Assembly: GCA_963703345.1 (NCBI GenBank)
Contig: OY969814.1
Coordinates: 32,001 to 96,000 of the forward strand
Source of the DNA: an uncultured Chloroflexia bacterium
GTDB taxonomy: Bacteria > Chloroflexota > Dehalococcoidia > DSTF01 > JALHUB01
Length of the DNA stretch: 64,000 bases
Direction of reading: 5' to 3'
The translations under genes were made by a program, and so were the position numbers. Below, piece by piece: positions 12,105 through 38,162 of this stretch. Within the stretch, counting starts at the first letter, position 1. Each line of letters begins with the position of its first letter. The notes under the pieces are model-generated. The model was not told the origin of the DNA. It saw only the letters and a program-made list of their open reading frames with translations, and did no database searches.

Positions 12105-13243
12105 GCCGTATCGCCATCCTCGGTTCCACCGGCTCCATCGGGCGTCAGACACTCGACGTGGTGCGCGGACTCCGGCAGCGTTTCCGTGTCATTGGACTCT
12201 GTGCCGGGCGCAACGTCACCCTCCTCGAAGAGCAGGCGCACGAATTCTCGCCGCGACTTGTTTGTTGCGACGGAAACGGATCGACACCTGACGGCGTTAT
12301 ACCTTTCGACGGTTTCGAATGCGCTCCAATGGAAGCCATCGCCGCCGATCCGGAAGTCGACCTCGTCGTCATCGCGACTGCCGGCAAGGCGGGCCTCATC
12401 CCGACGCTGAAGGCGCTGGAGGCGGGCAAGACCGTCGCCCTGGCCAACAAAGAAGTGCTCGTCATGGCGGGCCGGCTGGTGAAGGAAGCAGCCCGTCGCG
12501 GTCACGGCGAGATCCGGCCGATCGACAGCGAGCACAGCGCCATCTGGCAGGTAATGCGCGGCGAGAAGAACGCCAACATCCGGCGGCTGATTCTCACCGC
12601 ATCGGGAGGCGCGTTGCGGGACAAGAGCATCGATGAGCTCCACCGCGTGACGCCGGAGCAGGCGCTCTCCCACCCGACCTGGCAGATGGGGCGCAAGGTG
12701 ACAATCGATTCCGCGACGCTCCTCAACAAGGGGCTCGAAGCAATCGAAGCGCGCTGGCTCTTCGACGTGCCGCTGGACAGGATCGAGATAGTGCTGCACC
12801 GGGAAAGCATCGTCCACTCCGTCGTCGAGTTCTCCGACGGGTCGCTGAAGGCCCAGCTCGGCACACCCGACATGCGCGTGCCCATTCAGGTCGCGCTCTG
12901 CTATCCCGACCGGCCGCACCTGCCGTCCGTCCCACGCCTGGACCTGCGACAGCTTGGAGCGCTTCATTTCGCGGAGCTCAAGCTCGACCGCTACCCCTGC
13001 CTGTCGCTGGCCCTCGAGGCCGGGCATCGCGGCGGCACCTACCCAACCGTTCTCTCCGCTGCCGACGAGGTCGCCGTCGAGGGCTTCCTCAGCGGCCGAA
13101 TAGGCTTCACGCGGATCCCGGAGATCATCGATGAGACGTTAAACGCCCACGAAGGCGGCTCCGACGAGAGCCTGGACGAGATCCTTTCAGCCGATGCCTG
13201 GGCGCGCGAATATGCCGAGATTCTTGTAGGAGCGAAAGCGTGA
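12089..13243 (+). CDS. dxr: 1-deoxy-D-xylulose-5-phosphate reductoisomerase
   Basis: IAILGSTGSIG, LANKE, PIDSEH, LTASGG, HPTWQMG, TIDSAT. Start is GTG 12089 or GTA 12101. Confidence 0.95.
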   Translation: MGDSVSRIAILGSTGSIGRQTLDVVRGLRQRFRVIGLCAGRNVTLLEEQAHEFSPRLVCCDGNGSTPDGVIPFDGFECAPMEAIAADPEVDLVVIATAGKAGLIPTLKALEAGKTVALANKEVLVMAGRLVKEAARRGHGEIRPIDSEHSAIWQVMRGEKNANIRRLILTASGGALRDKSIDELHRVTPEQALSHPTWQMGRKVTIDSATLLNKGLEAIEARWLFDVPLDRIEIVLHRESIVHSVVEFSDGSLKAQLGTPDMRVPIQVALCYPDRPHLPSVPRLDLRQLGALHFAELKLDRYPCLSLALEAGHRGGTYPTVLSAADEVAVEGFLSGRIGFTRIPEIIDETLNAHEGGSDESLDEILSADAWAREYAEILVGAKA

Positions 13244-14303
13244 CCGGTCTCCTTCAGTCCCTGCTGCCTTTCCTCGGAATAATCATCGTTCTCGTGCTCG
13301 TCCACGAGTCGGGGCACTTCATCGCCGCGAAGCTCTCCGGCGTGCGGGTGCTGGAGTTCGGCGTCGGCTTTCCGCCGCGCATCGGCGCTTTCAAGTTCCA
13401 CGACACGGAATACTCGCTTAACGCGCTTCCTCTGGGCGGCTTCGTGCGTATGTTCGGCGAAGAGGACCCGTCGGAGCCGGGCTCCCTCGCCTCCAGACCG
13501 AGACACCTGCGACTCTTCGTCCTCAGCGCCGGCGCGCTCTGCAACTTCCTATTCGCTATTCTCCTCTTCAGCGCCAGCTTCATAATCCCGCGACAAGTTC
13601 CGGTCGGACGCGCCCTCATCACCGAGGTCCTGCCCGGCTCGCCCGCCGCGGCCGCCGGCCTGCAGAGCAACGACGTCATTTACAGCATCGACGGCCGCAA
13701 CGTTCAGAACGTCCCCGACGCCAGCTACAACATCCGTCTTCACCTGGGCGAGACGATAAAGATGACGGTCAAGCGCGGCACTGAGTTCGTCGACGTGAAC
13801 GTGAAGGCGCGCTGGGCGCCGCCGTCCGGGCAAGGGCCCACCGGCATCAGCATCTCTTCTCAATACCCCTTCACCGAAACGCAGTCCTACGCCCCCTGGA
13901 CAGCGCTGGGCCTCGGAACACGCGAGACGTTCGATTCACTGAAGCTGGCCCGCAACGAGGTCATCTCCTGGGTCAAGGGCGCCACTGCGCCCCAGGTCAG
14001 CGGACCGGTAGGAATCGTCCAGGCGACGGGTGAGGTCGTCAAGGAGGCAGGCTGGAAGTCGCTCATCGACTTCATGGGCCTCCTCAGCATCAACCTGGCG
14101 GTGATCAACATCCTGCCGTTCCCCTTCCTGGATGGCGGGCGCATCGTCTTCGTCCTGGTCGAGCTGCTGCGGCGCGGCCGGCGCATCGCTCCGCAGAAGG
14201 AGGCGCTGGTGCACCTGGCCGGGCTGGCTGTTCTCCTGACGTTCGTTGTAGTAATAAGCTACTTCGACATCGCCCGGCTCGTCCGCGGCGAAAACATCTT
14301 CCG

Positions 14304-14307
<4 letters not shown>
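13240..14307 (+). CDS. rseP: RIP metalloprotease RseP (M50 + PDZ)
   Basis: HESGH, PLGGFV, PDZ segment, NILPFPFLDGG. Confidence 0.92.
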
Positions 14308-15386
<1,079 letters not shown>

Positions 15387-28643: not shown

Positions 28644-29567
28644 TTATACTCTGCCGCGCTCGGACTGGCTAACCACCTCGATCGATTCGTCCTGCGTGCG
28701 CGGCTCCCAGAGCGACTCCAGGACGATCCACTGCCCCGGGTCCTGCCGCACGTACTTCTCGATAGCGGCGACGATCTTGAGCGTGTTAGCGCGGACGTCC
28801 TCTTCGTGCTTGCCCGTGGCCACCATCTCCAGCGGCGGCTCGGCGAACACGTCGAAGCAGCCACCTTTCGTCCGGCGACAGAACATCGGTATCACAACGG
28901 CGCCGGTTCGCAGCGCCAGCTCCGCCGCGCCGGTGGGCACGCGCGTCTCTTCGCCGAAGAATGGGAGCATGATGCCGGAGTTCTGGATATCGCGGTCGCA
29001 CAGCAGCGGCAGAACCCCGCCGTCGCGCAACCAGCGGATCGCTTCCCGCACCGCTGACAGGCTCATGGGGCGGTAGACCTGTCCGTGGGCCGCGCGCAGC
29101 CTATGCACCAGGTCGGAAAGGCGCTGCGGCTGCAGCGGCTCCGTAAGGGAGAACGTTGGGATGCCCATCGCGACGGCGCACTGAAGAACGATCTCAGGGT
29201 TCGCGTAATGAGCGCTGACTACGATGACGCCGCGTCCGGTCGCGATCGCCTCCTTCAGCTCATCGAGGGCGGAGACCACACTTATGCGCTCCCGGAAGAA
29301 ACGGCTGATGTCGATGCGCGGGCCGCGGACGAGGTCGGCGTAGTAGCGGGCGGCGTTGCGCATGACGCGTCGCGCGGCGGCCCTCACGTCGCCGGCGGGG
29401 GCATCGGCGCCCATGACGTGGCGCATGTTCCTCTGGACGTTTCGTCGCAGGCCCGGGCGGAGGTAGTACATAGCGGTGCCGACGCAATCGGCGATGAAAT
29501 AGGCGGCGGGCGTGGGCAGCCAGCTCAGGAACCAATACGAGAAGAGCAGGGCGACGTACTTGAACAT
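28644..29567 (-). CDS. Lysophospholipid acyltransferase family (PatA/LpxL-like)
   Basis: SAHYANPE, LLCDRD, PFFG...PTGAAELA, PGQW. Confidence 0.85.
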   Translation of the reverse strand: MFKYVALLFSYWFLSWLPTPAAYFIADCVGTAMYYLRPGLRRNVQRNMRHVMGADAPAGDVRAAARRVMRNAARYYADLVRGPRIDISRFFRERISVVSALDELKEAIATGRGVIVVSAHYANPEIVLQCAVAMGIPTFSLTEPLQPQRLSDLVHRLRAAHGQVYRPMSLSAVREAIRWLRDGGVLPLLCDRDIQNSGIMLPFFGEETRVPTGAAELALRTGAVVIPMFCRRTKGGCFDVFAEPPLEMVATGKHEEDVRANTLKIVAAIEKYVRQDPGQWIVLESLWEPRTQDESIEVVSQSERGRV

Positions 29568-29582
29568 CGGCCTCTCGCCTGC

Positions 29583-30494
29583 TCAGGGCCCGGAGGCCAG
29601 CGCCGTCTCGGTGTGCGCCGCCTTGGAGTTACGGTCCCACATGTCGTGGAAGATGAACCACTGGTTGGGGTCCAGGCGAATGAGCCGCTCCAGGGAGGTC
29701 ATGATGGCCTGCGTCAGGCGGCGGACGTCTTCTTCTTCGTCGCCCGACTTCTCGAAATTGAGGTCGAAGTCGATGATGGGGCGAATCAGCTTCTCTTCTC
29801 CCTTGACGCGCAGCATGATGCCCGGCATGGGGCGGGCGCCGCTCCTCAGGGCGAGGCGCGCCGGACCGACGGGGACTTCCGTCGGCGCGCCGAAGAAGTT
29901 GACCCGAACGGTGCCGCCGGGCTCCGGCACGTCGATGAGCAGCGCCAGGATTTCGCCGCGCCGCAACGCCCTGATTATGCTCGGCCCGACTTTCTCCATC
30001 GGCGTCACCTTCATCCCGAGATGACGGCGGGAGCTCTGCACGAGTGTGTTCATCGCCGGATGGGGGAAGGTCTCAGCGATGACGTTGACGGGGAAGCCGT
30101 AAGCCGAGAGGCCGGCCGCGCCCATGTCCCAGTTGCCGTAGTGCAGGGTGATGAAGATCACGCCTTTCTTCTCAGCCATGACGGCGTTGATGCGGTCCAG
30201 CTCCTCGTCGAAGACGATGCGGCGGCGAACCTCCTCCGGCGTTGAATCAAGGAAGTGGATGAAGTCGATGACGTACTTGCCGAAGTTGCGGAAGGAGCTG
30301 CGGGCGGCCAGGCTTATCGCGTTCTCGTCGTCGGTATCCAGAACGCGGGCCATGGCTGCCTTGAGGGCACGGCGCTTGCCGAAGAAGAAGACGTAGCACA
30401 CATCGGCGATGACGCGGGCGAAGAAGTATCCGACTTCAGGCGGGAGGGGACGCCCCAGCAGGATGATGAGGCGAAACAGCCAGTAAACGATCAT
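29583..30494 (-). CDS. Lysophospholipid acyltransferase family (PatA/LpxL-like), second paralog
   Basis: [16 protein letters not shown]...[12 protein letters not shown]; ATGA overlap with the ino1 stop. Confidence 0.85.
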
Positions 30495-31567
30495 GCCTTG
30501 CTCTTGGCGATGAACTCCTCCACCATTGCCCGCGCGCGGTCGTCCGTGTACTGCTTGGGCGGCGACTTCATGAAGTAGGAAGAGGGACCCACCAGCGCTC
30601 CCGATATCCCGCGGTCGAGCGCGAGCTTGCAACAGCGGATAGCATCGATGACGACGCCGGCGGAGTTGGGGCTGTCCCACACTTCCAGCTTGAGCTCCAG
30701 GTTGAGCGGCACGTTCCCGAACGTCGTCCCTTCCATGCGTATGTGGCACCACTTGCGGTCGAGCAGCCAGGGAATGTAGTCGCTGGGGCCGACGTGGATG
30801 TCGTCGGCCGGCATCTCGTAGTCGAGCTGCGACGTAACGGCGTTAGTCTTGGAGATCTTCTTCGATTCCAGACGCTCGCGCTCCAGCATATTGAGGAAGT
30901 CGGTGTTGCCGCCGAAGTTGAGCTGGTACATTCGGTCGATGCGGACGCCGCGGTCGCGGAAAAGGCGCGTGAGCACGCGGTGAGTGATCGTCGCGCCTAC
31001 CTGCGACTTGACGTCGTCGCCGATAACGGGGAGGTTGCGCTCCTTGAAGCGGCTCTGCCAGTAAGGTTCGCGCGCGATGAACACGGGTATGCAGTTGATG
31101 AGGCCGCAGCCCGCGGTCAGCACCTGCTCGACGTACCACTTCGTCGCTTCCTCGCTGCCGACCGGCAGGTAGTTGAGGACGACGTGCGTCTCAGTGTCAC
31201 GCAGGATGCCGACGATGTCGTCGGTTGGGCCCGGCGCCTTCTTGATGATCTGTGAGAGGTACTTGCCCAGGCCGTCGTGGACCATGCCGCGATGGACGCG
31301 CACGCCCATCGCAGGCACGTCGGCGAACTTGAACGTGTTGTTGGGCGCCGTATAAATGGCCTCCGAGAGGTCCTTGCCGACCTTGTTGGCGTCGATATCG
31401 AAGGCGGCGACGAAGTTGACGTCGCCGATGTGGTAACCGCCGAGGTTGGGGTGCATTATGCCGGGGATCGTCTTGTCGTCACCGGCGTCGCGGTAGAAGT
31501 GGACGCCCTGGACAAGGGAGGAGGCGCAGTTGCCCACGCCGATGATGGCCACGTTTATCTTTCCCAC
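30491..31567 (-). CDS. ino1: myo-inositol-1-phosphate synthase
   Basis: [55 protein letters not shown]. Confidence 0.95.
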
Positions 31568-31772
31568 GTTACACACTCCAGGAATCAGCCGGCGTGCTCA
31601 GGTCCATCTCAGCCCATCCCTCGGCAGTGCCGCTCCCGATCGCCGGCAGTGGGGAAAGCGGGACGGCCCGCTGCATTCTATCAATAGCGGCCGTTCACCG
31701 GCAAGCGAAAGGAAGACGAGGATTGTTCGCGAGAATACCGATGAAAGAGCAGGCCGACGGGCGTGAAGGGCG

Positions 31773-32642
31773 TTAGATGGCCCAGCGCGAACGCGCCATC
31801 TCGCGCTCTTCTCTCGCCAGCGTCAGGTTGTGACGGGCGCGACCGACGAGCGCTTCCGCCCCCTGCTCGTGCTCCATGATGGAGGCGACGCCAATGGAGA
31901 CGCCGATGGGAAAGCTGAGCGGCCGGCCTTCGAGGACCAGCGTCGTGGATGGGCCGTCGAGATACTGCCGTACACGCTCGGCGAAGGCCTCGGCCCCGTC
32001 GCGGTCGCAATCCAAAAGGAGGATGGCGAACTCGTCGTCCGCCAGGCGCACGGCCACGTCCGAGCCGCGCTTAGCCGATTCGATAACTCCGGCGACGCGG
32101 CCGAGGGCGGCGCAACCGGCTGCGTCGCCGTAAGCATGGTTGATCATCCGTAGACTGTTCACGTTCAGGACGGCCACGGAGAAAGCTTCGCCATAGCGAC
32201 GCGCCCGCGAATACTCTTCGCGCAGTCGCAGCCAGAAGTACTGCTCATCAGGCAGCCCGGTGACGGCGTCGCGCGTCAGAGGCAGGCCCGTACGCACCAA
32301 ACCGTTCCTTGCGCTGCGCAATCGCACGAGGGCCGTGACGCACACGACGCAGACGGCAAACGCCAACGGAAACCGCATCGCCGTTATGTAGGGCTGCGAA
32401 TCGGCGCGCTCTGCCAGTCCGAGAAGCAGCGAGGAGGTGACGAGCGCGAGCGCCAGAAAGAGGTAGCGCTCCAGCTCGCGCAGTTCCGGAGGCGTCGCCC
32501 GCACGGCCGCGACTTTGCCGCGCAGGTGCAGAGGATGCAGACTGGGACGGTGCCAGCCGGGCGCTTCCTCCAGGCGAGAGACACGGCGGGCGGCCGCGTC
32601 TTCGCCCGAAAAGGTCTGCTGTTCCCCCAACGAATGCTTCAT
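31773..32642 (-). CDS. Membrane protein with degenerate GGDEF domain (ADDEF; RxxD I-site present)
   Basis: Two TM helices, then RDAVTGLP...RGSDVAVRLADDEF. Start uncertain (ATG 32642 or GTG 32864). Confidence 0.75.
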   Translation of the reverse strand: MKHSLGEQQTFSGEDAAARRVSRLEEAPGWHRPSLHPLHLRGKVAAVRATPPELRELERYLFLALALVTSSLLLGLAERADSQPYITAMRFPLAFAVCVVCVTALVRLRSARNGLVRTGLPLTRDAVTGLPDEQYFWLRLREEYSRARRYGEAFSVAVLNVNSLRMINHAYGDAAGCAALGRVAGVIESAKRGSDVAVRLADDEFAILLLDCDRDGAEAFAERVRQYLDGPSTTLVLEGRPLSFPIGVSIGVASIMEHEQGAEALVGRARHNLTLAREEREMARSRWAI

Positions 32643-32784
32643 TGACCGAACGCTCCCGGGTCTGCCCATCCAGTAGATCATCGGCCGATTGCTGCTTACC
32701 TGATGGGCGTTTGAAGGCGAAATTTGCGAAACGGGCGGCGGCGAGAAGCGGCGAGCGCGGTCTGCGGCAGTTGTAACGCCATCT

Positions 32785-32810
32785 CGGGCCGCTCGGGTTG
32801 CCGAGCGGCC
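32785..32810. repeat. REP-like hairpin, copy 2
   Basis: Identical to 1641-1666; both copies are preceded by CGCCATC. Confidence 0.7.
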
Positions 32811-32860
32811 TCTCCCCTGCGGCGGGACCTCGTCGCTCCTGAGCGTCATCTTCGGCCGGG

Positions 32861-33556
32861 TCACGCCGTCTCTTTACCGCCGATCTCTGCGTATGCCATC
32901 GCGATCTCGTCGCCGTCCTTGCCGAACACGACGACGTAGTCGAGATACGGATCGTCGACCCGGAAGGAGACGGTTACCGGCGAAGGAGACCCGAGCTCGA
33001 AGTCGGCCCGAGGATGGTTGAGGAAGACGCCGTAGCCTCGACTACTGGAGCACGAGGGATTCATCAGTCCCACCGCTGCCGGACAAAGAACGCGCTCCTC
33101 AGCCGACAGCTCGAAGCTTTCGTGGAAGGCGACGCGGCCGCGGGAATCGCGCGAGTAGCCAAGCGGCAGCGACACGAGGCGCGTCGGCGTTACGTCGCCG
33201 ATCTGCTGGACGATGATCTTTCGCCCCGCGAAATCGAAGACGCCGTAGTGGAAGGGACGGCGGACAACCCGTAGCTCGAGCGCCCGGCTGCGCACAACAA
33301 TCCGGCCTTCCCGCGTCTCCACTCTCACCTGCTCCGACGACTCCATCGCATCCACGCGGATCGGGCCATCAGCGACCCGTCGGCAGCGGACGCGGACGGC
33401 CTGCGGCGAGACGAAGCGGACATCCAGCGTCATCGCCTCGCCGTCGTTCGTCAGCACAGCGAAGCGGGCGCCGCCGGGCACACGATGATAGCGCTGCACT
33501 CGCGAGAGGTAGCGGTAGCTGCGCGTCGGGTCGTCGAAGATCGTGACTTCCGGCAT
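32861..33556 (-). CDS. GH31 (YicI-like) N-terminal beta-sandwich-only protein, possibly a remnant
   Basis: SSRGYGVFLNH, FELGS, LDYVVVFG...YAEIGGK match the GH31 N-terminal region; the ORF stops before the catalytic barrel; GGGAGG SD. Confidence 0.6.
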   Translation of the reverse strand: MPEVTIFDDPTRSYRYLSRVQRYHRVPGGARFAVLTNDGEAMTLDVRFVSPQAVRVRCRRVADGPIRVDAMESSEQVRVETREGRIVVRSRALELRVVRRPFHYGVFDFAGRKIIVQQIGDVTPTRLVSLPLGYSRDSRGRVAFHESFELSAEERVLCPAAVGLMNPSCSSSRGYGVFLNHPRADFELGSPSPVTVSFRVDDPYLDYVVVFGKDGDEIAMAYAEIGGKETA

Positions 33557-33769: not shown

Positions 33770-36607
33770 TCACAGGTCGAGACGAAATCCCCGGCCTCTT
33801 ATTGTCACAATGAAGAGCTTCGAGGCGCCGGCCGCGCGCAGGCGATCGCGGACACGGTGGACCAGGGCGTCGACCGCCTCATCCGAGACCCCGCCGAACG
33901 CTTCCGGCCAGGCGCGTTGAATGATATCGTCGCGCAGACACAGCTTGCCGGCGTTCTCAAAGAGATAAGCCAGCAGCGAGTACTGCTCGCGGGACAGCGG
34001 CGGCATAATCTCTTTCCCTCTAACGAAGACTTGCTGGGTTCTCGTGTTGACGTAAAGCTCTTGCTCCTCTAACGGCTCCGCGACAAGCACCGGGAGCGCA
34101 CCGACGCCGGTCGTCGCCAGCACCGCCTCTGACGGCACAATTGCAGTAACGCGTCTACGCCGCCGAACGCGCACGAGCACGACGGCGCCGGCGGCAAGCG
34201 CAACCGCGGTCGCCATCGAAATCGACAGGATGAGCGGGAGGACAAGATCCCGGCTGCCCGACCCGCCGGCGGCGAGGTTCTGCACCGTCAGCGGTTCTGC
34301 GGACCAGGCGAGATCGCCGCTCTTGACCGTCAGACCAACGTTGCCCGACTGGTCGATGGTACCCTGGGCGCCTGCAATGCCGTCGATGGCCTGGGCCGCC
34401 ATGTCCTGGATTGTGCCGTCAGGAAGGTTGAGCACAAAGTCCACTTTCGTACCGTTCGGCACGCGATGCCCGTTCTTGGCGACCAGCGTCAACGTCAGCG
34501 CGAGCGTGAACGGCTCGCCGACGAGCAATTGCGGCGGGTCGACGCTAAGGGCCGGCGTTTGTGTCGGGTCCGCAGTGACGCTATCGCTGAGGTCGTTTAC
34601 AACGTAGCCCTCGTAGATGTAGTCGACGGGGAGCTTGCCGCTCGTAACGCCGTCGCGGAGGATCGTCGGGTCCTGGAAGAGGACCTTCAGCGTCGCCTTG
34701 AGCGACGGCTCGATCTTGCTGTACGCGGCGACGAACAAGTTTACGTTGCGCAGCTCGCCGGAGTCGAGATGATAAGGCGAGTTGTAGGCGAAGACGACGA
34801 CCTTCTTCGAACGCAAGTCGAAGAGGGCCGGGCCGCTGCGCAGGAAGTCCTTCAGGACGCCGGACGAAGGGTAGTTGGGGTCGGGCTCGAGGAAGGCGAA
34901 GACGATCCATCCCGCGTCCTCAACCGCCTTCTTGACCGCCGCATCCCCCTTGCCCGCCAGCACGGCGCCAAGCTGCGTGAAGCTGATAGTGTTCAGGTTC
35001 TCCTTCGGCACGCGCCCCGGGAACATCTGGTCAACCAGGCTTGCCAGCTTGCCGCGCGGCCAGAGAGGCGGATAGCTCGTATCGGTCCCGGGCGTGGCGC
35101 AGCCGGCATCGTCCCAGCACTCGACGAAGAGGATGTGGTCGGCAGCGCCGGGAACGGGCATCTGCCGCTGGAGCTCTTCGCTTGTCGTCGGCAGGATGAG
35201 AGTGAGCGCGTCGTCGGCTATCGAGGTCACTTCGCTCAGCCTGTCCGGCTGGCCCACCTTTCCCTGGTACTCCGGCATCTTCGTGATCGTCGCCGCATCG
35301 AAGCCGCCGTACAGCCGCGACTTGAGCGTGAGCACCCGACGGGCGGCGTCGTCTATGCGCGCCTTCACCATCGGGTCGGCGTCGTAGCGGCTGACCAGGT
35401 AGTCAACGGTTGCGGTCAGATCCTCCCACTGCCAGGGACGGATCAGCGGCAGCAGGTCGTTTCCGGCCATCAGCGCTTCCAGCGCCAAGTCCGCCTGACG
35501 GTAGGTGCCAAACTTCAGTTGCGCGTAGGCTTCGACGGCGCCGGTTGCCAGGTCGTCGGCAACAGTCACGCCGCCCGCCTGCCGCCAGGCAGCGAAGTAC
35601 GGCAGCCCGAAGAACGATTGCATGCAGGTGGGGCTGAAGCCGACCGGCGTCCCCGCTTCGCAGCCGGCGACCCCGGAGTAGCTGAGATGCGAGATCATGA
35701 TGCCGTCGGCGGTCCCCTTGTCACCCGGCTTCCCCTGCGAGACGGTGGCGAATGGAAGGAGGTCGACTTGCGCCAGCGCGTCCAGCGTCTTTCCTACGAC
35801 AACCGGCACGTCCACGGACTCCACCGAGCGCGTGCTCTCCCCGTGACCCGGGAAGTGCTTGGCAACCGCGGCCAGCTTCCCGCCGCCGCACTGCTGGATG
35901 CCGCTAACGTAGGCCGCGCCCATCTCGCCGACCCAGCGCGGGTCGCCGCCGAACACCCGTATCCCCTGGTCCCCGGCGCCGCCCGAGCGCGGCAGGTCGA
36001 GCACGTCGAGATCGGGACCGAAGAGCATGTTGACGCCCACCGCCGAAAGCTCCTGGCCGACAATGCAGCCTATCTTCTCCGCCTGGGCCGGATCGAAGGT
36101 GGCGCCGATCGTCATGTTGCTAGGGATGGGCGTGAAGCGATTGAGCAGTCGCGTCGCCGGCCGGTCGTCGCCCTCGTGGTCGATGCTCACCAGCAACGGC
36201 AGGCAGTACGTCACGCCGTTGACGGTAACGCTCATGGAGGAGCAGGCGGTCTTTTGCAGATCGTTCGTCAGGCGGGCTACCTGGGCGGGCGTGTCGGGAT
36301 CAGCTTCAGCGGGAAAGCCGCATCCCTGCGGATCGTGGTTCGTGCCGTTGAAGATGTTGCAGGTCTCGCGGCTGAGGTAGACGCCGCCGAGTTGATGGTC
36401 GTTGATGAACTGGCGCACATCAGGCGTCACCTCGTCGCCCTGGAAGCCGCTGATGAAGAGCTGCTCGACCTTTTGCCGCGCCGTCAGAGCCGCCAGTATC
36501 TTGTCGACGACATCGCTGGTTTGCGGGGTCGAGCGGGCGTACGCCGTCGGCGCGTTAAGGAACACGCCGCAGAGAAGCAGCGCCAATAGGACTCGTCGCG
36601 GTCCCAT
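33770..36607 (-). CDS. Signal peptide-GH3 (NagZ-like)-beta domain-TM-OmpR-type winged-helix fusion protein
   Basis: Signal peptide ...PTAYA; GH3 motifs SIDHEG, GVNMLFGPDLDV, KHFPGHG, ADDL, AGND; TM followed by RRRRR; C-terminal LSREQYSLLAYL...VDALVHRVRDRL...IVTIRGRGFRL. Confidence 0.85.
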   Translation of the reverse strand: MGPRRVLLALLLCGVFLNAPTAYARSTPQTSDVVDKILAALTARQKVEQLFISGFQGDEVTPDVRQFINDHQLGGVYLSRETCNIFNGTNHDPQGCGFPAEADPDTPAQVARLTNDLQKTACSSMSVTVNGVTYCLPLLVSIDHEGDDRPATRLLNRFTPIPSNMTIGATFDPAQAEKIGCIVGQELSAVGVNMLFGPDLDVLDLPRSGGAGDQGIRVFGGDPRWVGEMGAAYVSGIQQCGGGKLAAVAKHFPGHGESTRSVESVDVPVVVGKTLDALAQVDLLPFATVSQGKPGDKGTADGIMISHLSYSGVAGCEAGTPVGFSPTCMQSFFGLPYFAAWRQAGGVTVADDLATGAVEAYAQLKFGTYRQADLALEALMAGNDLLPLIRPWQWEDLTATVDYLVSRYDADPMVKARIDDAARRVLTLKSRLYGGFDAATITKMPEYQGKVGQPDRLSEVTSIADDALTLILPTTSEELQRQMPVPGAADHILFVECWDDAGCATPGTDTSYPPLWPRGKLASLVDQMFPGRVPKENLNTISFTQLGAVLAGKGDAAVKKAVEDAGWIVFAFLEPDPNYPSSGVLKDFLRSGPALFDLRSKKVVVFAYNSPYHLDSGELRNVNLFVAAYSKIEPSLKATLKVLFQDPTILRDGVTSGKLPVDYIYEGYVVNDLSDSVTADPTQTPALSVDPPQLLVGEPFTLALTLTLVAKNGHRVPNGTKVDFVLNLPDGTIQDMAAQAIDGIAGAQGTIDQSGNVGLTVKSGDLAWSAEPLTVQNLAAGGSGSRDLVLPLILSISMATAVALAAGAVVLVRVRRRRRVTAIVPSEAVLATTGVGALPVLVAEPLEEQELYVNTRTQQVFVRGKEIMPPLSREQYSLLAYLFENAGKLCLRDDIIQRAWPEAFGGVSDEAVDALVHRVRDRLRAAGASKLFIVTIRGRGFRLDL

Positions 36608-36665
36608 GCTAGGCAGAGTATAGGCTCCAGCAGCGCTGAAGCATAGGGGTCTAGGGATGCTTTTC

Positions 36666-38162
36666 CTAACGAACCCAGTGCCTGGCGCGATCCACGGCTT
36701 GCTTCCAGCCGGCGTACATCTCCTCGCGCCTGGCTTCGTCCATCTGCGGCTCAAAGACGCGGTCGGCGTGCCAGAGCCGGCCCAACTCGTCGCGACTCGA
36801 CCAGAAGCCAGCGCCCAGTCCGGCCAGGAACGCCGCGCCCAGGGCGGTCGTCTCCAGCACGGCGGAGCGCAGCACGCGACGCCCCAGGATGTCGGCCTGG
36901 ATCTGCATCAGCAGGTTGTTGCGGGCGGCGCCGCCGTCGACGCGCAGCTCCGGCATGCTCACACCCGACTCTCGCTCCATCGCCTCGACGACGTCGCGCG
37001 ACTGGAAAGCGATCGCCTCCAGCGTCGCGCGGGCGATGTGGGCGGCAGTCGTGCCCCGCGTCATGCCGAGGATGGCGCCGCGGGCGTACTGGTCCCAGTA
37101 AGGCGCGCCAAGGCCAACGAAGGCGGGCACCATATAGACGCCATCGCTGGACTCGACGCCGGAAGCGAGCGATTCGACTTCGCTTGACCTGCCGATTACC
37201 CCGAGCCCATCGCGCAGCCAGGCGACAGCCGCGCCGGTGACGAAGATGCTCCCCTCCAGCGCATATCCCAGCTCATCGCCGAGCTGCGAGGCGACGGTCG
37301 CAAGCATCGTCTGCGACGGCGCGACCCGGTCGCCGGTGTGCATGAGGACGAAGGAGCCGGTGCCGTAGGTGTTCTTCGCCATTCCCGGGCTGAAGCAGCC
37401 CTGGCCGAAGAGCGACGCTTGCTGGTCGCCGGCGATGCCCGCCACGGGCGCTTCGATCCCCAGCAGCGACTTCTCGGTGGTGCCGACGGCGCCGCTGGAG
37501 GGCCGGATCTCAGGCAGGACGGCCTCCGGCACATCCAGCTCGCGCAGCAGATCGGGGTCCCAGGCGCCGCGACGCAGATTGTAGAGCATCGTGCGGGAGG
37601 CGTTCGTGGCGTCGGTCACGTGAGCGGCGCCGCCGGTGAGGCGGTAGGTGAGCCAGCTATCAACGGTTCCGAACGCCAGCTCGCCCCGCTCCGCCTTTCG
37701 CCGCGCCCCGTCGACGTTGTCCAATATCCAGCGCAGCTTCGTACCCGAGAAGTAGGCGTCGATGACGAGGCCGGTGCGTTCGCGGACAAACGATTCCATG
37801 CCCCGCGCGCGCATCTCGTCGCACATCGAAGCGGTGCGCCGGCACTGCCAAACGATGGCGTTGTAGACGGGCCGGCCGCTGGCGCGCTCCCAGACGATCG
37901 TCGTCTCCCGCTGGTTCGTTACGCCGACCGCGGCGACGTCCGAGGCGTCGATGCCCGTCTGAGCGGCCTTTCGCAGCACCTGCCTGGCGGCAGCAAGCTG
38001 GGAGGACCAGATCTCCTCGGGGTCGTGCTCCACCCAGCCGGCCTGGGGGTAGATCTGCCGGAAGGACTCGCCGGCCTCAACGACCGGTTTCCCGACTTCG
38101 TCGAAGAGGACGGCGCGGGAGCTGGAGGTCCCCTGGTCAAGCGATAGGATGTAGCGGGCCGT
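36666..38162 (-). CDS. glpK: Glycerol kinase; probable ACG start
   Basis: [52 protein letters not shown]. An ACG start at 38162 gives 498 aa. Confidence 0.93.

Follow-up and report, generated by a model that had tools for sequence, protein, structure and literature searches.

The 64,000-nucleotide stretch analyzed here (the window; contig OY969814.1, positions 32,001–96,000, assembly GCA_963703345.1, from an uncultured Chloroflexia bacterium placed by GTDB in the Dehalococcoidia) carries on its minus strand, at window positions 33770–36607, a single unbroken open reading frame (ORF) of 945 amino acids (aa). The fusion is real and conserved, and the encoded protein is predicted to be a membrane-spanning one-component regulator, in which an ectodomain derived from a glycosidase of family 3 (GH3) is joined through one membrane helix to an OmpR-type winged helix. 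This fusion is likely to be the one-protein form of an undescribed pathway, encoded elsewhere in the phylum by a three-gene kinase cassette.

The layout of the gene was established by ORF analysis, Pfam searches and structural modeling; all coordinates below refer to the minus strand of the window, unless indicated otherwise. A predicted Sec signal peptide (aa 1–24, ending in A-Y-A; 36536–36607), recognized from sequence and hydropathy, precedes the N-terminal GH3 barrel (aa 44–428; 35324–36478), which matches Pfam Glyco_hydro_3 (PF00933; E 1e-34, above cut-off) and in which conservation and the NagZ fold place the pocket residues D143, R153, R217, K250 and H251. The second GH3 domain, an alpha/beta sandwich (about aa 454–680; 34568–35248), was delimited by the model and its fold matches, and the following all-beta Ig/FnIII-like domain (about aa 685–778; 34274–34555) by the model; in homologues, the latter gives weak Big_1 matches, below cut-off. 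Hydropathy analysis revealed hydrophobic stretches at aa 6–24 and 788–806, the second within a single predicted Ala/Gly-rich membrane helix (aa 788–812; 34172–34246). The helix is followed by an RRRRR stop-transfer stretch (aa 815–819; 34151–34165), a variable Pro/Ala-rich linker of 12–35 aa and the OmpR/PhoB-type winged helix (about aa 848–945; 33773–34066), which was assigned by Pfam, a profile and a tree; the C-terminal match to Trans_reg_C (aa 870–943, E 3e-15) is above cut-off. This is the architecture that a sequence-only reading of the same DNA had described, and Pfam, hydropathy and the model confirmed it. Hydropathy, the basic stretch and paired cysteines predict a type I topology, with the ectodomain outside and the winged helix inside the cell.

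The AlphaFold model (mean pLDDT 88, 80-row alignment) contains the barrel, the alpha/beta domain, the all-beta domain, a low-confidence stretch (781–846) and the winged helix. Its best fold matches were two-domain NagZ structures from Bacillus subtilis (4gyj: TM-score of 0.77 by target), and the second domain and beta domain, taken as a unit, loosely matched GH3 proteins only (Foldseek). Scans of the 945-aa protein with Pfam and NCBIfam gave no receiver-domain match, and no FHA match was found in it.

The frame stays open between the membrane helix and the winged helix, where a stop or an assembly chimera had been considered, and the same fusion recurs in other sequences. A DNA sequencing run, possibly made from the source sample itself, yielded short contigs of which none covers that joint, and it does not count as evidence here; no RNA data set with the gene was listed. 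In the protein search, 49 of 87 family hits had both Glyco_hydro_3 and Trans_reg_C in one chain, 48 of them being clusters (90% identity; NCBI, ENA, JGI and Logan) other than that of the window protein; close homologues carry the database labels Dehalococcoidia or Chloroflexia. A full-length family member was identified in 17 of 301 genomes of the same class, the other 12 matches being ordinary GH3 proteins. One of these carriers (G221) is counted only in the 17-of-301 tallies, and all other genome counts refer to 16 carriers, from five families, in each of which the protein ends in the winged helix. A sample of the whole phylum contained the family in 35 of 301 genomes, including 20 of 20 of one family. 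With a profile made from the second domain and the beta domain, 470 clusters at 50% identity were recovered (E up to 1e-30), although some of the top hits are unrelated repeat proteins matched through the beta domain. Among the 11 loci listed, the fused gene has no conserved neighbours beyond its closest relatives.

The NagZ-type signature region of the window protein reads KHFPGHGESTRSVES; the Asp-His dyad is missing and the ADDL nucleophile region is kept (D351, aligned with the GH3 nucleophile; 35555–35557), both as the sequence-only reading had stated. Compared with NagZ, the barrel and alpha/beta fold, the Asp nucleophile and the N-acetylglucosamine (GlcNAc) pocket are present and the dyad is lacking, and the NCBIfam NagZ score is 72 bits against a cut-off of 207. 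The remodelled catalytic loop (aa 250–266; 35810–35860), modelled with lower confidence, contains a near-invariant Arg260 and acidic residues at 263 and 265/266. None of the 180 family sequences contains the D[ST]H motif, and their loop consensus is S-x-R-x-x-D/E-x-E; early motif counts of this kind are biased, since many of the sequences had been retrieved with a KHFPG pattern or for their similarity to the query. A less biased set of 87 diverse full-length relatives was collected by the second domain alone, ignoring the barrel. In the split forms described below, the loop has NagZ spacing with an acid at the His position, whereas a one-residue insertion makes the register at this position uncertain in the window protein. 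By alignment, dyad loss is family-wide and not special to the fusion.

Among the 87 diverse relatives, the nucleophile is replaced in 23, which makes catalysis dispensable in the family and excludes much of it as retaining glycosidases. Just nine keep all five of D143, R217, K250, H251 and D351. Arg260 is present in 84, better kept than any catalytic residue, and together with D201 and D615 belongs to the positions retained in 82–84 of the 87. In the fused forms, the five residues are found in 49 of 49 close homologues and 16 of 16 genome-derived sequences (overlapping sets), the pocket being invariant down to about 36% identity. It is very likely, given these residues, that the window protein still binds a GlcNAc-type sugar, and hydrolysis by the fused form would be slow or absent. 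The absence of the dyad does not prove a dead enzyme, however, because in the fused forms both pocket and nucleophile are intact and an Asp/Glu occupies the His position or the one beside it, so that residual activity is possible.

The split form of the system, which the sequence-only reading had no means of seeing, emerged from family members at 80 or more loci of the genome collection; among those listed, there were five winged-helix fusions, one kinase fusion and 74 unfused genes, the last mostly labelled Anaerolineae. Complete unfused proteins have a Pro/Thr linker and three hydrophobic segments at their C-terminus. After 24 unfused loci with less than 2.5 kb of downstream sequence had been dropped, 50 of those listed remained, and 40 of these contain a three-gene cassette composed of (i) the gene for GH3 with three membrane segments, (ii) a convergent gene for a 330-aa Ser/Thr kinase (less than 400 bp away in 38 loci) and (iii) an FHA-Trans_reg_C gene divergent from that of the kinase. 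The kinase ends at one membrane helix (tail-anchored) and has no sensor domain, and the regulators have the order FHA-winged helix with no BTAD match. Eight further loci yielded six complete cassettes, one kinase only and one locus cut by a contig end. The split form is present in the cultured Thermanaerothrix daxensis (L063).

Several features accompany these genes. A CpXC-domain protein is often encoded after the cassette (L065:11554–12906 and 12 other loci), and a glycerophosphodiesterase and an AAA ATPase often ahead of it. The kinase/FHA intergenic regions (e.g. L063:10752–10906) contain recurrent TATTATA and CTGTCAA sequences, interpretable as a divergent promoter with overlapping sigma-70 boxes. 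Individual copies are damaged: L094 is a broken fused gene (in-frame TAG in the barrel) and L064 a cassette gene with a split reading frame.

With a profile built from the cassette regulators alone, the window's winged helix obtained 107 bits, and no other winged helix of the same genome more than 42. In a tree of 82 winged helices (100 columns; 31 of 71 fused, 24 of 47 cassette, 18 of 18 other FHA-type and nine others), the fused and cassette domains form one clade (100/100, branch 1.08), the fused ones alone another (97/98), and the window's domain groups with FHA-type, not receiver-type, regulators. On these comparisons, the kinship of the fused and split forms is firm. The other FHA-winged-helix regulators (L111–L128) have a Ser/Thr kinase nearby in 17 of 18 loci, which makes an association with FHA and a kinase the likely ancestral state of the DNA-binding domain; these loci also suggest a wider Chloroflexota kinase/FHA regulator module.

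The kinase is missing where the fusion occurs. The cassette kinase was detected at 498–542 bits in four of four control genomes and was not found in any of the 16 fusion genomes, in which the best score was 152 bits and eight had no match at 1e-10. In the window's own genome (2.28 Mb, one contig, 95.85% complete), there is no PF00069 (Pkinase) match. A separate FHA-winged helix was identified in two of the 16 fusion genomes, in both cases outside the cassette clade.

The ectodomain has also been joined, through its helix, to other outputs: class III cyclases (P0036, P0044), kinases (P0038, P0065, L007, P0233), a kinase with a hydrolase (P0039) and a kinase with a cyclase (P0040). In a fragment, P0121, one chain combines the ectodomain and helix with a class III cyclase as well as the same winged helix. 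The kinase fused in L007 is 35% like the cassette kinase, and L007 and L129 belong to one Anaerolineae genome, which has a full cassette plus this separate GH3-membrane helix-kinase fusion. The ectodomain tree indicates at least three origins of kinase fusions and at least two of cyclase fusions. Such repeated wiring to unrelated signalling outputs would be the behaviour of a sensor domain; together with the cassette, it independently supports a sensor role, and with it the earlier view of the protein as a membrane one-component regulator.

The genomic context is consistent with a cell-wall ligand. The window's genome encodes penicillin-binding proteins (PBPs), a transglycosylase and Mur ligases, and within the class (n=301) the 17 carriers all belong to the 128 genomes with PBPs; the 173 PBP-negative ones include no carrier. 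Dehalococcoidia are described as having had peptidoglycan ancestrally, with loss in later orders (PMC10284905). Our best guess for the ligand is a muropeptide.

On balance, the protein probably acts as a membrane-bound one-component regulator that binds GlcNAc-ended peptidoglycan fragments at the surface and switches promoters while anchored. OmpR-type domains bind direct repeats. In the fused form, the GH3 ectodomain would bind such fragments outside the cell, and ligand-driven dimerization via the single helix would bring two winged helices together on a direct repeat, phosphorylation playing no part. In the cassette, ligand-bound GH3 may cluster the kinase in the membrane, and the autophosphorylated kinase would then recruit and activate the FHA regulator, by analogy with PknH and EmbR. 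We propose more tentatively, as a plausible scheme that falls short of being probable, that these are the parts of a receptor/co-receptor-like cell-wall surveillance pathway of Chloroflexota: a NagZ-derived pseudo-enzyme receptor that has no part in the cytoplasm, a tail-anchored Ser/Thr kinase lacking a sensor, and a regulator of the FHA-winged-helix type. One lineage would have no kinase tier and a single chain for receptor and DNA-binding domain, which would amount to a natural conversion, in either direction, of phosphorylation cascade and one-component regulator; the ectodomain would have been re-wired several times, to other kinases and to cyclases, as a portable muropeptide sensor, comparable to PASTA domains.

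A number of observations are at odds with these proposals. The linker below the helix is long and variable, and thus poorly suited to rigid signalling. No target gene of the regulator was identified, and inspection by eye of the kinase/FHA intergenic regions and of the DNA upstream of fused genes revealed boxes of sigma-70 type but no obvious direct repeat in common that could serve as an operator. The association with PBPs is weak, as the carriers are kin from five families, and 10 of the 50 unfused loci listed have neither cassette neighbour. Most split forms have an eroded pocket, so the ligand may vary across the family; Arg153 of the lactyl site, whose spacing corresponds to that of the +1-site Arg described in PMC6987092, remains in 45 of 49 close homologues versus four of 16 genome-derived sequences. 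The ectodomain tree rooted on NagZ, in which the split forms are nested inside the fused ones, speaks against a simple fusion story; a test on 28 rows with a simpler model did not reject monophyly of the fused ectodomains (p 0.125). Finally, two candidate acid/bases exist, since position 263 is Asp or Glu throughout the fused forms and domain 2 contains E/D574 (in 47 of 49), and the 945-aa protein is the only GH3 in its genome, as are its counterparts in most of the genomes checked (sole GH3 in 4 of 5), which fits a needed enzyme.

These last points bear on a trigger-enzyme explanation, which we regard as unlikely, though a serious contender. According to it, the protein is an active surface N-acetylglucosaminidase that recycles wall fragments and whose catalytic cycle drives the winged helix, with Asp/Glu263, Glu265/Asp266 or Glu574 standing in for the His acid/base. 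In addition to the sole-GH3 status, it is favoured by the retention of the nucleophile, the pocket and acidic 263 in all fused forms, by the lower model confidence of the loop, expected of a mobile loop, and by some fungal Ngs1 orthologues that have a Glu acid/base and are possibly active (PMC5063960). However, Asp or Glu occupies position 263 in just 54 of the 87 diverse relatives, the gene is still retained in the 23 without the nucleophile, and Arg260 is better kept than the catalytic residues.

It is improbable that the ectodomain senses something other than soluble GlcNAc compounds (intact wall, S-layer glycan or protein) via the Arg260 loop and the second domain, with the pocket left over or diversified. 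The mostly eroded pocket of the split forms and the strong conservation of Arg260, D201 and D615 would suit such a ligand; the invariance of the pocket in the fused forms would not. Release of the winged helix from the membrane by regulated proteolysis, through RseP (as the sequence-only reading had suggested) or another protease, is very unlikely. The Ala/Gly-rich helix and unstructured linker would permit cleavage, and the genome contains RseP and other M50 matches. Nevertheless, RseP lies beside ispG (13240–15386, plus strand), a housekeeping arrangement 20 kb from the fusion, the substrates described for it in PMC10024687 are type II as opposed to the predicted type I protein here, and no rhomboid match was found in the window's genome. 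An error of assembly or annotation, or a functionless fusion arisen by chance, was rejected as having a negligible probability: one carrier genome (G130) has an in-frame TAG in the barrel, but independent assemblies carry the same fusion (49 clusters from four sources; 16 genomes in five families).

In ToxR and CadC, the winged helix is N-terminal and the periplasmic sensor C-terminal. Like these regulators and TcpP, the window protein combines a membrane helix with a DNA-binding domain in a single chain (an OmpR-type winged helix in ToxR and CadC), but it has the signal peptide first and the winged helix last (870–943 of 945), a 750-aa enzyme-derived sensor and no conserved neighbouring co-component that could be seen. 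It also lacks the receiver domain of OmpR-type response regulators. A predicted membrane helix plus a predicted DNA-binding domain in one chain, as found here, is the defining feature of a census of transmembrane transcription regulators. The sequence-only reading's inverted topology has precedents: the order glycosidase-membrane helix-DNA-binding domain is already represented in that census by GH18-LytTR (DNA-binding domain last), listed along with HTH_31-GH42 (PMC10269533). No Glyco_hydro_3 was found among the census regulators in the nine supplementary files searched (PMC10269533). Rsp of Neisseria is a census example of a two-component pair fused in one chain (PMC10269533), whereas the related pair here is a Ser/Thr-kinase system.

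The Anaerolineae cassette resembles PknH-EmbR of Mycobacterium in pairing a membrane Ser/Thr kinase with an FHA/OmpR-type regulator (PMC4601284). It differs in the domain order (FHA-winged helix), the absence of BTAD and a kinase that lacks a sensor domain, a role that falls to a separate GH3 protein; the window protein itself has neither kinase nor FHA, and hence not the combination of FHA, BTAD and cognate kinase that characterizes EmbR/SARP regulators. Two-domain NagZ enzymes (B. subtilis YbbD; 3bmx, 4gyj, 6k5j) are similar in fold, pocket residues and export, but the window protein is devoid of the Asp-His dyad and adds the Ig-like domain, membrane helix and DNA-binding domain. Ngs1 of Candida albicans, a dyad-less GH3-GNAT protein, is reported to bind GlcNAc and signal without hydrolysis (PMC5063960); like the window protein, it is a NagZ-like GH3 that has kept the GlcNAc pocket, lost the dyad His and controls transcription. 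Ngs1 is intracellular, with His replaced by Leu and a histone acetyltransferase output (PMC5063960), whereas the GH3 of the window protein is predicted to be extracellular, with Asp/Glu at the His position and a winged-helix output. In RsgI6 of Clostridium thermocellum, a glycosidase domain of very low activity is likewise re-used as an extracellular glycan sensor, but this is a GH10 domain, placed C-terminally in an anti-sigma factor of other topology (PMC4711584). No publication on a GH3-winged-helix fusion or on the cassette was found in the open-access text searched.

Upstream of the fused gene, an alternative TTG start at 36754 would give a longer frame, but one overlapping the upstream FGGY-family kinase gene. 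A TATACT hexamer (36617–36622), 9 nt before the ATG at 36607, is a possible −10 box of a leaderless transcript; similar boxes were noticed by eye in several fused homologues, and the hexamer is absent from the list produced by a sigma-70 promoter scan. Downstream (31773–33556) lie an ORF of 231 aa that weakly matches alpha-xylosidase (GH31) and a gene for a membrane GGDEF protein, with similar neighbours in L001, L002 and L082 only. Further on (28644–31576), an inositol-3-phosphate synthase gene is followed by two acyltransferase genes, the best NCBIfam match of one product being phosphatidylinositol mannoside acyltransferase (below cut-off). This group possibly represents an inositol-lipid pathway in a Chloroflexota bacterium.

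What is new here is a variant of transmembrane one-component regulators linked to an undescribed kinase cassette. If the proposed interpretation is true, it would provide a specific wall-sensing pathway for a large, poorly cultured phylum and show that GH3 sugar sensors arose a second time, in addition to fungal Ngs1. The two forms, three proteins versus one, would be a natural pair for comparing a phosphorylation relay with a membrane-tethered factor carrying the same signal, and the split form is testable in T. daxensis. The type I ectodomain, naturally joined to four kinds of output, could serve as a biosensor part.

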